From assembly GCA_024614665.1 (NCBI GenBank), contig GCA_024614665.1_4861.1: a stretch of 64,000 nucleotides of DNA; one strand, 5' to 3'. Position numbers and translations under genes: made by a program. This document shows positions 948-5,069 of the stretch, piece by piece. How positions within the stretch are numbered: position 1 is the stretch's first letter; each line of letters begins with the position of its first letter. The stretch is from a phage. The notes below the pieces were generated by a model. It made no database searches and was not told the origin of the DNA. It saw only the letters and a program-made list of their open reading frames with translations.

Positions 948-1000
948 CGTGAATAAATTCTCCTTAAGGTTACGTCCCTGTAGATAATATCTATCTCAGA

Positions 1001-1741
1001 TTACTTTAAGAGATGCAAGAAGCGTGCTGCCTGTTCTGTAAAGTGAAAATACTCGATGGTATCAGGTTCGTCCGAGTGAATGTCATCCGGGTCCAGCAGG
1101 TAGCCCGAGATATCATCCGTTAAAACCCAAGCGTCCCCTTGCAGGAAAATACCCATCGGTTTTTCTACCACGGGCATCACTAAGTCCGAATAAGAGTTAC
1201 CTTCTGCTACCCTTACAATGTCTACACACGGGTCAACAATATACAGGTTGCAGAGACTGCGATCTTTAAGACTGCGATGAAACATCGCTCGATCGTACCA
1301 AATAACCTGAGAACAATTATCTTCGTCACCCGCCACATCGACCAACTCTGTCCAGAAACGATGTAAGAACCAGTTCAACGCACCGGTTATTAGCTCGTTC
1401 GGTTTCAGCATTCTAACGTGTTCGTCGTACAACTCTTCCATTGTCCAGATTCGACACTGCTCACGATCGATTGTCGGTAGGGGAGGTATTTGCGGCGGGA
1501 CTTGTTTAGGCATCGGTTCATCACATCTTGCATTGTAACGCGCAATTGTTTCGGTAACCAGCTCTGCCACAACATCACAAGCCGCTTCAAATCCCCACTT
1601 GTACAACACGTCGTAATCTTCCATGGGCGCAGCACCGAACTCACGGTTCGTTGCCATCCACGACATCCATCCGTATTGCTCCACACAGTTAATCAGACTT
1701 TGTGTGTGGAGCGTGAGCGATTCACTCACGACTCGCAACAT
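1001..1741 (-). CDS. hypothetical protein (about 246 aa)
   Basis: ORF track 1001..1801, start moved to the internal ATG (MLRVVSES...) that directly follows the TAA of the upstream gene; the longer ORF would overlap that gene by 59 nt. Confidence 0.5.
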   Translation of the reverse strand: MLRVVSESLTLHTQSLINCVEQYGWMSWMATNREFGAAPMEDYDVLYKWGFEAACDVVAELVTETIARYNARCDEPMPKQVPPQIPPLPTIDREQCRIWTMEELYDEHVRMLKPNELITGALNWFLHRFWTELVDVAGDEDNCSQVIWYDRAMFHRSLKDRSLCNLYIVDPCVDIVRVAEGNSYSDLVMPVVEKPMGIFLQGDAWVLTDDISGYLLDPDDIHSDEPDTIEYFHFTEQAARFLHLLK

Positions 1742-1742
1742 G

Positions 1743-3257
1743 TTACACCTCTTCTTCTCGCAGTATGCGACGGTTTGCGTAATACGCACACCACAACCCA
1801 TGATACTCTTTACCGATATAGATTAAGAAGTAACGGATGTAGTATTTTTCAGGACGACACACCGCGATGTAATAACGGCCTTCCGGTTCTTTAATACGGT
1901 TGATTTCCGTACGCGATGGAATATCGATGCCGCGAGTCAAAATAACCGAGACAGGTCGTTTACCCATCGGAAAGTCAATCTTTAACGTTATTGACTTATC
2001 GACGCTACGGTAGTATTCCTTGACAGGTTTACCTTTGTCGTCGAATAGCAAGTCGGTAATGTCGTTTAAGACATAACCCTTTTCCTGATGCAGAACATCT
2101 CGCAACGTTGTAGCGAGTTCGTCACGAATATCCAGCGCACGGTACGACAATAAGGGCGGGCGAAGCATTCTGGAGATGGCCAGGTCTTCAAAGAACCAGA
2201 CATTGGAATCTTCTCCACTGAAATGCATCTTGTCTGCCGGTAATCCATCACCTGCCACATCAACGAACTTCTTACGTTTAACGAACTCATTGTTAACAAC
2301 ACCGATTGGATCATACTGCCGCATCTTCGGTGTATCTTTCCATGCCAGGGCGGCGTGGGTGTTTACAATCGTGTAGATGTTATCCCACGGTTGTTTAGTG
2401 AACATTACGGAAAAGTGTGCATCAGGAATCATTTTCCCAATAAACACCAAGTCGTCCTTGTTCTTTGCATGGTTACCACCAAACATGTAATAGAAAGTTT
2501 CATCTTTCACTTTTACAGTAGGATGGTCCTCGTTCACCAACGGATAGCAATATTTAACCGTACAAATCGGCGGATATGCCGCAAGGTTCATCCCAGCGGC
2601 GATGGGCTCGGGTTCCGCGGATGCAGGCAACTCATCTTTCGACCAGTACGGCTGATATGGAACGCCGTCGTTGGTCGCAGTGATAGCTGAACCTTTTCTA
2701 GCCAATTCGTCCGCCCGGTCGTTACCGTAGTGGCCGGAGTGTCCTTTGATTTTGATAACCTTAACACCCCGTCCTTCTTTTTTCATCTGCTGTTTGATTT
2801 CCCAGATACGAACAATAAGTTCTTTGTTCGCCAGCGGAGTACCGTCAGCACGAACCCAACCACGTTTATGCCAGCCGTCTATCCACTCGTTAAAAGTGTT
2901 TACAACGTAACTGGCATCCACGTAGATGATATAGTTCTTCGCGCGGAAGGGTGCGTTCTCAAACAACGTGATGAAGGCGATTAACTCGCCCACATCTGAG
3001 TAGAACTCTTTCGGAACGGGAATAACGGCGTCGACAAATTGAACGGTGTCCGGCAACTCCGGACACTTCACATCCTGCGGCACTTTTTTGTATCCAACAG
3101 TGGTAATCCGTTCTGAAACACCCGGATGGCTATAAGCCTGACTGTCTTCCAAATCTCCGTTGTTGAATAAATAACCATGAATACCAGCCCCCGAACCTTT
3201 CGGGGACTCAGTATGACTACCATCGGTATAAATAACCGCTACGTCGACGTCTTTCAT
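1743..3257 (-). CDS. RNase H (type 1) fold protein with about 300-aa C-terminal extension of unknown function
   Basis: N-terminal VIYTDGS, WIDGWHKRGW, IKGHSGHYGNDRADELARKG match RNase HI catalytic and substrate motifs; GAGGAG RBS; start overlaps stop of upstream gene (TAATG). Confidence 0.75.
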   Translation of the reverse strand: MKDVDVAVIYTDGSHTESPKGSGAGIHGYLFNNGDLEDSQAYSHPGVSERITTVGYKKVPQDVKCPELPDTVQFVDAVIPVPKEFYSDVGELIAFITLFENAPFRAKNYIIYVDASYVVNTFNEWIDGWHKRGWVRADGTPLANKELIVRIWEIKQQMKKEGRGVKVIKIKGHSGHYGNDRADELARKGSAITATNDGVPYQPYWSKDELPASAEPEPIAAGMNLAAYPPICTVKYCYPLVNEDHPTVKVKDETFYYMFGGNHAKNKDDLVFIGKMIPDAHFSVMFTKQPWDNIYTIVNTHAALAWKDTPKMRQYDPIGVVNNEFVKRKKFVDVAGDGLPADKMHFSGEDSNVWFFEDLAISRMLRPPLLSYRALDIRDELATTLRDVLHQEKGYVLNDITDLLFDDKGKPVKEYYRSVDKSITLKIDFPMGKRPVSVILTRGIDIPSRTEINRIKEPEGRYYIAVCRPEKYYIRYFLIYIGKEYHGLWCAYYANRRILREEEV

Positions 3258-3976
3258 TATTCTCCTCGCAACTGCGGTGGAATGTATTCACCTGTGCACA
3301 TTTCGCGGTGGGCTTCTAACATGCGCTCGAAGCCGTACGTACGCGCGACCAGGGCCAAATGATAGATGCGTGCCGTAGAATACGCTTCCTTCGCAGCATC
3401 AAAGCTAGCGTTATGCTCGTACGCTTCTTTGCCACGGGTCCAATGGTGCGCTTCTGCGTGCCAGTTAGGTTCCAGGCCAAACGCATATGCAATACGCTCT
3501 GCAGTCCGGTCAGAGTCCAATATAGAAAACTTGCGGTACTTGCCCGGCGGGATATCGCACTGCGCGAACGCGTTCATCAGAATTGGAGCATCGAAATCGG
3601 GACCGCGCATGGTGATAACCATTTTCACGTTGCCCAGATCATCCAACCATTTTTTGGCCGCCCACAGTGCTTCTGGCAGTGGCGTGGTCCCAGAAAACGC
3701 TTCAACACGTGCTTTCTCGCTCGGTGCGTATTCGGGGTCGCCTTTACCTTCCCAATAGCCGACCGTTTGTGGATCGATGTAGAAGATTTCTTTTGCTTTT
3801 GCATCGTTAGGGTCGATTTTGTGGTAACACGAACCGATCATTTTCATTGTCGGAACATCGAATGCCACGTTTGCCAACGTTAAGATGTAGGCATCTGGAC
3901 GTAAAGCCAGGGTCTCTAAGTCTGTACCAACAACCACGGTTGGTGTTAAAACAGGCAGAATTTTAGGATAGGTCAT
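3257..3976 (-). CDS. DEDDh-family 3'-5' exonuclease
   Basis: Exo I VVGTDLETL (DxE), Exo II GPDFDAPIL, Exo III HNASFDAAKEAY (H-x4-D); GGAGAG RBS. Confidence 0.65.
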   Translation of the reverse strand: MTYPKILPVLTPTVVVGTDLETLALRPDAYILTLANVAFDVPTMKMIGSCYHKIDPNDAKAKEIFYIDPQTVGYWEGKGDPEYAPSEKARVEAFSGTTPLPEALWAAKKWLDDLGNVKMVITMRGPDFDAPILMNAFAQCDIPPGKYRKFSILDSDRTAERIAYAFGLEPNWHAEAHHWTRGKEAYEHNASFDAAKEAYSTARIYHLALVARTYGFERMLEAHREMCTGEYIPPQLRGE

Positions 3977-4020
3977 TTCAACTCTCCACGAGATTATATA
4001 TCACACTATTAACTATTAAC

Positions 4021-4060
4021 GTAAAAAAGGAAATCCCTCTTACCCGAAGGTAAGAGGGGA
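4021..4060 (-). terminator. intrinsic terminator
   Basis: hairpin CCCTCTTACC-CGAA-GGTAAGAGGG followed by a T-run on the minus strand, downstream of 4065..4544. Confidence 0.6.
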
Positions 4061-4064
4061 ATTT

Positions 4065-4544
4065 TCATTGCACAAGGCAACTACTTCTGTGCCGTTCGTA
4101 GGCACGATTAAAAGACACTCTGTCTTCGCGATAGCCGCGAATGAGAGACTTAATCTGTCGTGACAAATCACGACTAATGTCTTGAGGGCTACGAGAACCA
4201 GGGTCGAGATATATCCCAGTGGGTATATCATGAAGAGTGGGGCGAATAAACTCTTCACAAAGCGGTGCGGCCATCGGGGTGCGCCACCCCTTAGCTTCTG
4301 CGTAATTGTTCAACGACTTAGCGTACAGATAAACGTAATAAGCATAAGCGTTCACATCCGCAACAAACATTTTCCCTGCCAGCTTTTTCGCCTCAGGACT
4401 GTTCCCACCGACATAAACTGGTGGGTGTTCTAAAGGACGAAAAGGCCAATCTCCGGTTGAGGAGTAATCTGGGTCTACGTGACGGATGACCCCAGGGCAT
4501 CCTGTCAACAATAGCACCAATATCGCCGCCAAAAATAACTTCAT
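4065..4544 (-). CDS. lipoprotein (possible o-spanin or exclusion lipoprotein)
   Basis: N-terminal MKLFLAAILVLLLTGC with lipobox LTGC; starts 10 nt after the preceding membrane-protein gene. Confidence 0.55.
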   Translation of the reverse strand: MKLFLAAILVLLLTGCPGVIRHVDPDYSSTGDWPFRPLEHPPVYVGGNSPEAKKLAGKMFVADVNAYAYYVYLYAKSLNNYAEAKGWRTPMAAPLCEEFIRPTLHDIPTGIYLDPGSRSPQDISRDLSRQIKSLIRGYREDRVSFNRAYERHRSSCLVQ

Positions 4545-4553
4545 GTATGCTCC

Positions 4554-5069
4554 TCATGGATTATTAAGCGTACTGATAATCTCCTGTCGGAAATCATTTG
4601 CCTCCTGCGACCCTACCGGGCGAGAAGCGGCCTGGTGTTTCTTGGCAGGTGGGCTAGACGGATTTAACGGTGCCGGCGGTGTTACCGGCTTGGGTTCTAC
4701 AGGCGGAACCGCGGCCCCAGTGCCTGTTCCTGTTGGAGATTTGGTACCATCATATGGCGGTCGAGAACCCAGGCACGTGAAGAGACGATCGTACAACTTA
4801 TTGTTCTCCACTTCGCCGTGATCGGACTTCTCTTTTAGCTCCTTATAGGATATCTCCAGATACTGAGTACGCGATTGAACGCTAACCAGTGTGTGGTATT
4901 GAACAATATAGGCATATGAGACAAATGCAGAGAACGCGATCAGTGCCACTATCACTAGTGTCACTATTTTCCCGGCTCGTGTTACTTTCTCCCCCTCGCC
5001 CGGTTTAAATGCTTCCCACAGTATCTGTAAGAATGGAAGCAGTTTGAAAACTGATGCTATCATGCTCAC
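4554..5069 (-). CDS. membrane protein with Pro-rich C-terminal region (possible i-spanin)
   Basis: hydrophobic segment IVTLVIVALIAFSAFVSYAYIV; Pro/Thr-rich tail PPVEPKPVTPPAPLNPSSPP; ORF track. Confidence 0.45.
   Translation of the reverse strand: MSMIASVFKLLPFLQILWEAFKPGEGEKVTRAGKIVTLVIVALIAFSAFVSYAYIVQYHTLVSVQSRTQYLEISYKELKEKSDHGEVENNKLYDRLFTCLGSRPPYDGTKSPTGTGTGAAVPPVEPKPVTPPAPLNPSSPPAKKHQAASRPVGSQEANDFRQEIISTLNNP

Follow-up and report, generated by a model that had tools for sequence, protein, structure and literature searches.

RNase H-clamp (Rhc) protein of an SPN3US-type jumbo phage, a probable ortholog of phiKZ gp155

The gene described here, rhc (RNase H-clamp), lies on a 64-kilobase (kb) stretch of phage DNA (64,000 nucleotides of contig GCA_024614665.1_4861.1, NCBI GenBank assembly GCA_024614665.1), called the window below, and encodes a type-1 RNase H joined to a second, clamp-like domain. 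With a probability of about 0.82, its product is the ortholog, in the SPN3US lineage, of Rhc (phiKZ gp155/Nlp2), which belongs to the core replication proteins of the phiKZ-like jumbo phages that form a nucleus. An RNase H architecture, an intact active site, a predicted clamp-like fold, basic conserved surface residues and a flexible linker were observed for the window protein. The family is already characterised, and the window copy, a straightforward ortholog, is already known. Coordinates of the features are collected in Table 1.

Window bases 1000-4000 share 99% nucleotide identity with Salmonella phage SPN3US and Proteus phage 7 (Seoulvirus), both phiKZ-like jumbo phages with genomes of about 240 kb. 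The remainder of the window holds mostly structural genes. The SPN3US counterpart is SPN3US_0207 (ACQ60_gp059), of equal length and with equal neighbours; in SPN3US and Proteus phage 7 its annotation reads "putative ribonuclease H" or "ribonuclease", and the paper on SPN3US essential genes does not mention it. In the program-made list of open reading frames (ORFs), rhc is a single intact ORF of 504 amino acids that starts with ATG on the minus strand. The original prediction, made from the sequence alone, described an RNase H fused to a large C-terminal region, and this fusion stands, the protein being encoded by one continuous ORF and conserved as one protein. A reading as two genes or a frameshift was rejected, given the continuity of the ORF and its conservation as one protein from SPN3US to phiKZ. 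SPN3US and Proteus phage 7, like dozens of their relatives, have it annotated as a single ORF, and it is unsplit in relatives down to 26% identity. PHROG 3265 ("ribonuclease", 496 positions) matches the product over its full length (E 1.2e-189), which together with the annotated copies indicates an established phage protein family and not an accident of one genome. In the Salmonella phage SPFM records LR5359xx (SPFM1, 6, 9, 10, 12, 14 and 20), rhc appears in many short pieces annotated as several hypothetical proteins; these broken copies look like sequencing or assembly errors rather than biology.

Comparison with the RNase H proteins of related phages, a check proposed in the original prediction, revealed full-length homology to phiKZ gp155. 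BLASTP aligned residues 5-493 of the window protein with residues 3-475 of the homologue from Pseudomonas phage SL2 (E 4e-38, 26% identity), whose gene is 99.6% identical to PHIKZ155 at the nucleotide level. The phiKZ155 protein (Nlp2) enters the phage nucleus by import and is a model import cargo. It was demonstrated as a bona fide RNase H in vitro, is nuclear, and is essential for the nucleus to mature and for amplification of the genome; a D102N dead mutant still complements (Nature 2025; PMC12571901).

The abstract of an October 2026 phiKZ preprint describes Rhc as an N-terminal RNase H with a C-terminal clamp-related domain and reports cryo-electron microscopy (cryo-EM) of a single Rhc on the two-subunit family-B polymerase (DNAP-N/DNAP-C) with primer-template DNA (PMC13648687). 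According to the same abstract, Rhc binds the emerging duplex together with the polymerase thumb domain and strongly boosts primer extension, and phages that encode Rhc have no identified clamp and no known clamp loader (PMC13648687). In the abstract of an October 2026 Goslar preprint, Rhc is reported to bind DNAP-C, to require both of its domains as well as RNase H activity, and to support late transcription also, probably via R-loop resolution (PMC13648698). SPN3US has two genes annotated as DNA polymerase (NC_027402, 11544-13823 and 41224-43008) and a DNA helicase gene, and one of the polymerases belongs to PF20286, "divergent family B DNA polymerase" (E 5e-284).

Domain architecture of the window protein

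All of the RNase HI motifs that the original prediction named in the first 190 residues or so are present, namely YTDGS (residues 10-14), WHKRGW (129-134) and KGHSGHYGNDRADELA (171-186), and the domain passes a profile search. The Pfam family RNase_H, PF00075, is matched with 78.4 bits (cut-off 25.8; E 8e-22), although only residues 89-190 are covered, because an insertion separates the N-terminal strands from the remainder. PHROG 531 ("Rnase H") also matches the product (E 2.2e-27). A phmmer search of the PDB found the E. coli, Thermus and human RNase H1 enzymes (E about 1e-12), and residues 91-202 align without a break with residues 48-152 of E. coli RNase HI, the basic-protrusion region included. 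With the full-length predicted model, Foldseek returned the E. coli and human RNase H1 structures from the PDB (E 2e-8, probability 1.00), with some 190-200 aligned columns and a template modelling (TM) score on the target of 0.6-0.77.

The catalytic residues are D12, E91, D114 and D183, with H173. Among 39 homologues E91, D114, H173 and D183 are invariant and D12 is nearly so, and of 65 distant representatives sampled across the whole family, 51 retain all of the DEDHD residues. D114 aligns with D102 of phiKZ155, the residue changed in the published dead mutant. By profile, fold and catalytic residues, the RNase H domain looks catalytically competent. Cleavage of the RNA strand of RNA/DNA hybrids has been shown in vitro for the phiKZ homologue (PMC12571901). 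The family also includes full-length members with substitutions at catalytic positions, for example GIDNL, CDDLS, SDESS or NENHD (P0061, P0069, P0070, P0080, P0130 and P0173). These are possibly dead-nuclease lineages that keep the clamp function alone, which would fit the phiKZ D102N result; as the assignment is alignment-based, they may instead reflect misalignment.

The sequence had suggested an unusually long insertion separating the first Asp from the Glu, and it is real: D12 and E91 are 79 residues apart, as against 37-43 in family members without the insertion. The corresponding distance in E. coli RNase HI is 38. The spacing is bimodal across the family: 14 of 53 members have 37-43 residues and the other members 64-117 (69 in the phiKZ protein), so the insertion varies by lineage, as a decoration, and does not define the family. 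It comprises about 40 residues, flanked by predicted strands at residues 20-31 and 73-81, and is modelled with confidence (predicted local distance difference test, pLDDT, 88-92) as a mostly irregular segment with little regular secondary structure.

The RNase H domain is followed by a linker and then by the C-terminal domain. Linker residues 209-215 are the sole segment of the full-length AlphaFold model with pLDDT below 50, and the corresponding columns in the alignment of the 39 homologues are gap-rich and of variable length. The full-length model has a mean pLDDT of 88 and a predicted TM score (pTM) of 0.56, whereas the C-terminal domain modelled alone reaches a pLDDT of 91 and a pTM of 0.89. 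The low-confidence linker and this difference in pTM point to two rigid domains on a flexible tether. The C-terminal domain is basic (isoelectric point, pI, 8.2) in comparison with the linker (pI 4.05), and its conserved motifs include GNHAKNKDD, KRKKF, RPPLLSYR, DITD and GIDIPxR. Nine of the 16 invariant positions in its alignment are Lys or Arg, which, with the basic pI, would fit DNA binding by this domain. Its conserved Lys and Arg residues include K265, K267, K275, R328, K329, R366, R373, R449 and R497.

A domain search and structure prediction, both suggested in the original prediction, gave no Pfam family for the C-terminal region and a predicted fold of a diverged sliding clamp. No Pfam family was matched at E<=10 by the C-terminal domains of three divergent members, and a profile of the domain searched against all PDB sequences gave chance matches only (E about 1) and no solved relative. 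In the same Pfam and PDB profile searches, no sequence-family match to the canonical sliding clamps (PCNA, beta and gp45) was obtained. Since Foldseek with the full-length model gave RNase H matches only, the C-terminal domain had to be modelled by itself, and two independent structure-comparison methods, one of them Foldseek, then placed this model among clamps. With the other method, the matches and their scores were Hus1 (6.2), Mec3 (6.1), Ddc1 (5.8), the African swine fever virus clamp (5.7), Rad9 (5.7), gp45 (5.0), the beta clamp (4.9), PCNA (4.7) and UL44 (4.3). Foldseek ranked PCNAs first (E 1e-3 to 1e-2), with weak scores and a TM score of about 0.3. The assignment is made because both match lists agree in spite of the weak scores, and those scores in turn imply strong divergence; the C-terminal domain is thus predicted to be a strongly diverged sliding-clamp relative.

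Table 1. Features of the rhc region, in window coordinates
Feature	Position	Strand	Details and basis
rhc gene (RNase H-clamp)	1743..3257	minus	504 codons plus TAA stop at 1743-1745; ORF list
Type-1 RNase H domain	2658..3257	minus	residues 1-200; PF00075, PDB phmmer, Foldseek, residue conservation
Lineage-variable insertion	3042..3164	minus	residues ~32-72, between strand 2 and strand 3; predicted model
Acidic, Pro-rich flexible linker	2562..2657	minus	residues ~201-232; pLDDT, pI 4.05, alignment
Predicted sliding-clamp-derived domain	1746..2561	minus	residues ~233-504 (~270 amino acids), two alpha/beta subdomains
DEDDh 3'-5' exonuclease gene, Rv2179c-like	3257..3976	minus	239 amino acids; ORF list, PF16473, PHROG 255
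Shine-Dalgarno sequence GAGGAG	3262-3267	minus	ends 4 nucleotides before the rhc ATG, within the end of the exonuclease gene; read from sequence
Terminator-like hairpin	4035..4058	minus	putative upstream bound of the transcription unit; terminator scan and sequence
Downstream gene	1001..1741	minus	246 amino acids; PHROG 9472, no Pfam match; ATG 1 nucleotide after the rhc stop

Distribution of the fusion and comparison with known systems

A tblastn search with the C-terminal 304 residues alone matched 217 phage records. Those listed come from the phiKZ-like jumbo group, with phages of Erwinia, Pseudomonas, Salmonella, Vibrio, Aeromonas, Ralstonia and other hosts, and among the matches listed the gene is mostly annotated as ribonuclease H and otherwise as a hypothetical protein. 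When 1.84 billion representative proteins were searched with a profile built from the C-terminal domain (E<=1e-3), 790 protein clusters were matched, in which the matched segment is the C-terminal end of proteins of about 440-560 amino acids, short or truncated entries excepted. PF00075 is present in 55 of the 65 sampled representatives, and the tail beyond the last catalytic Asp is of near-constant length in the family alignment (298-352 residues). Stand-alone clamp-like domains were considered and rejected, because matches of 291-365 amino acids retain the last RNase H residues and are therefore truncated proteins. The presence of PF00075, the lack of stand-alone domains among these matches and the constant tail suggest that the fusion of RNase H with a clamp-like domain is ancient and close to obligatory. 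In hundreds of phage lineages, the order of domains hardly varies.

A Pfam Macro domain was found in one of the 65 sampled proteins, the scan not naming its bearer. It is probably P0171, a protein of 668 amino acids with about 180 extra N-terminal residues before the RNase H-clamp body, so that its first catalytic Asp is residue 192. The neighbouring genes of P0049, the most distant match of the word search, are almost without annotation.

The window protein shares with phiKZ gp155 and Goslar Rhc the same order of RNase H, linker and clamp-derived domain (about 300 amino acids), and the setting of a jumbo phage of the phiKZ kind whose family-B polymerase is split; with gp155 it aligns end to end with conserved catalytic residues. 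It differs from gp155 in the 26% identity, in the longer Asp-Glu spacing and in its coupling to a DEDDh exonuclease gene, which the gp155 position in phiKZ lacks. It resembles E. coli RNase HI and human RNase H1 in fold, in the DEDD+H active site and in the basic-protrusion region, but its strands 2 and 3 are set apart by about 40 additional residues, and it carries a C-terminal extension of 300 amino acids and no eukaryotic-type hybrid-binding domain.

PCNA, the 9-1-1 proteins, T4 gp45 and the beta clamp are the best and nearly the sole fold matches of the C-terminal domain. These canonical clamps differ in giving no sequence-family match and low TM scores, and in that Rhc is reported, in the phiKZ preprint abstract, as a single subunit (PMC13648687). 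The herpesvirus factors UL42, UL44 and PF-8 have no detectable sequence relation to the window protein and no nuclease domain. In the PCNA-RNase HII complex (PDB 3p83), whose PCNA is Foldseek match 5 for the C-terminal domain, an RNase H is likewise kept at the replisome by a clamp-fold protein. There, however, a type 2 nuclease and a ring clamp are separate proteins joined through a PIP-box peptide, whereas the window protein unites a type-1 RNase H and one clamp-derived module in a covalent fusion.

The coupled exonuclease and a probable local transcription unit

Translational coupling of rhc to an upstream DEDDh exonuclease, through the sequence TAATG, was also part of the original prediction and is confirmed. 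The exonuclease TAA at 3259-3257 overlaps the rhc ATG at 3257-3255 by one base. The upstream product matches PF16473 (Rv2179c-like 3'-5' exoribonuclease; 35.8 bits against a cut-off of 27, E 8.6e-9) and the exonuclease PHROG 255 (E 4.5e-53), and its translation contains the DEDDh motifs D-x-E, D and H-x4-D as GTDLET, RGPDFD and HNASFD. The two genes are adjacent in Seoulvirus, in Cronobacter phage CR5 (with a 14-nucleotide overlap) and in Vibrio phage pVa-21, and adjacency is absent at the phiKZ/SL2 and Erwinia phage Ea35-70 (Agricanvirus) loci. It is therefore a lineage trait: the coupling is real here and is not a feature of the whole family. A functional partnership between the exonuclease and Rhc is hypothesised. 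Further upstream, a divergently oriented virion structural gene occurs in all four loci covered (SPN3US, SL2, Ea35-70 and CR5).

Two adjacent small genes, 4554-5024 and 4065-4544 (minus strand), are annotated as "hypothetical" in SPN3US and belong to PHROGs 8719 and 8165. One carries a membrane helix at its N-terminus and is rich in Pro at its C-terminus, and the other has a lipoprotein signal with the lipobox LLTGC, an arrangement typical of an i-spanin/o-spanin pair, which they may represent. Between the lipobox gene and the exonuclease gene sits the terminator-like hairpin, a perfect, GC-rich stem of 10-11 base pairs (CCCTCTTACC-TTCG-GGTAAGAGGG); both strands carry T-runs. Between the hairpin and the exonuclease ATG (~3990-4010, minus strand) there are a TATATAAT box and a GGAGAG ribosome-binding site. 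Judged from these elements, the hairpin and the TATATAAT box are likely the terminator and promoter boundary of the exonuclease-rhc unit. A scan for sigma-70 promoters gave nothing above shuffled expectation; phages of the phiKZ type rely on RNA polymerases of their own.

The exonuclease gene, rhc and the downstream gene are packed with overlaps or a 1-nucleotide gap, which suggests one transcription unit. The downstream gene is probably co-transcribed with rhc and may be part of its functional unit. It is followed on the same strand by another conserved gene (213-947, minus), which belongs to PHROG 8219 and has no Pfam match.

Proposed role at the polymerase and alternative explanations

From the phiKZ and Goslar homologues, it is proposed that one Rhc molecule would dock via its clamp-derived domain on the C-terminal subunit of the split family-B polymerase. 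The domain and the polymerase thumb would then grip the duplex leaving the active site, raising polymerase activity with neither a ring nor a clamp loader, and the domain would be a monomeric processivity factor, functionally like herpesvirus UL42 and UL44. The tethered RNase H would clear RNA from RNA/DNA hybrids (primers and R-loops) in the template path, inside the phage nucleus. The C-terminal region, which the original prediction had left as uncharacterised, can thus no longer be called so: its predicted fold is that of a diverged clamp, and the preprint abstracts describe its phiKZ and Goslar homologues as a DNA-binding, polymerase-docking module. The idea that the fusion links hybrid cleavage to another nucleic-acid function holds, but because the second module is of this clamp-like kind, a second enzymatic processing activity does not.

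Several points weigh against this assignment. The role of the SPN3US protein as Rhc derives from experiments with the phiKZ and Goslar homologues, and identity to phiKZ gp155 is just 26%. We infer that Rhc is gp155 from matching descriptions, gp155 being the phiKZ protein annotated as RNase H that was found here, nuclear and essential for genome amplification; the preprint abstracts give no gene number. The polymerase genes lie outside the 64-kb window, so that their presence here is deduced from the 99% identity with SPN3US. Whether RNase H catalysis is needed is a matter of dispute, the phiKZ D102N mutant complementing whereas Goslar Rhc, according to its abstract, needs the activity.

It is improbable that the protein is a stand-alone RNase H for primer or R-loop removal, with a C-terminal domain used for targeting, as a PicA/Imp1 import surface or a DNA anchor, and not as a polymerase subunit. 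Such a view would draw on the status of phiKZ gp155 (Nlp2) as a model import cargo, whose GFP-tagged form makes a PicA-like punctum, on the treatment by Iyer et al. of the RNase H1 of phiKZ-like phages simply as a primer-removing enzyme, and on the report in the Goslar abstract that the transcription role is separable from replication (PMC13648698). Yet cryo-EM and primer extension, as summarised in the phiKZ abstract, put the C-terminal domain on the polymerase and duplex DNA (PMC13648687), DNA binding is consistent with the clamp fold and with invariant residues rich in Lys and Arg, and import recognition and polymerase docking are compatible with each other. That the domain forms a closed, homo-oligomeric sliding clamp carrying several RNase H domains round the DNA is extremely improbable, even though its best fold matches are ring-forming two-domain subunits (PCNA, 9-1-1 and gp45). 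Global TM scores to PCNA of about 0.3 suggest a subdomain arrangement unlike that of a ring subunit. Clamp-fold processivity factors that act as monomers or dimers are known in UL42 and UL44; both are among the structure-comparison matches and offer a non-ring precedent. The phiKZ abstract, which by reporting no identified clamp in phiKZ-like phages leaves room for a ring, also reports no known clamp loader and a single Rhc subunit per polymerase (PMC13648687).

The coupled exonuclease raises the question of a two-enzyme RNA-removal module in the SPN3US lineage, beside or instead of the polymerase-subunit role, in which RNase H would nick the RNA strand and the Rv2179c-like 3'-5' exoribonuclease would degrade the fragments. 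This is doubtful: the TAATG overlap with its internal Shine-Dalgarno sequence, the adjacency kept in Seoulvirus, CR5 and pVa-21 and the match to an exoribonuclease family favour it, but adjacency is missing in phiKZ/SL2 and Ea35-70, gene overlap is common in phage genomes and no proof of a physical complex, and the Pfam match of the exonuclease is modest. A related proposal, distinctly doubtful as well, keeps Rhc as a polymerase subunit and makes the exonuclease of Seoulvirus, Derbicusvirus and pVa-21 a fourth, lineage-specific partner of the Rhc-polymerase assembly, with the RNase H insertion as a docking or import surface that differs between lineages. If true, RNase H nicking and 3'-5' exoribonucleolytic clearance of primer or R-loop RNA would be coupled at the replisome.

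The assignment of the window protein as an Rhc ortholog supports an upgraded annotation for SPN3US-type phages, from "putative ribonuclease H" to "RNase H-clamp (Rhc), DNA polymerase accessory subunit". To the characterised family the present analysis adds the variable size of the insertion, an apparent loss of catalytic residues in a few members and the coupling to an exonuclease in one lineage. Rhc helps to explain a long-standing gap, namely how phiKZ-like nucleus-forming phages replicate genomes of at least 200 kb although neither a sliding clamp nor a primase can be recognised in them. Joined to RNase H, a clamp-derived domain would provide these phages with a built-in processivity subunit, in a protein that is essential.

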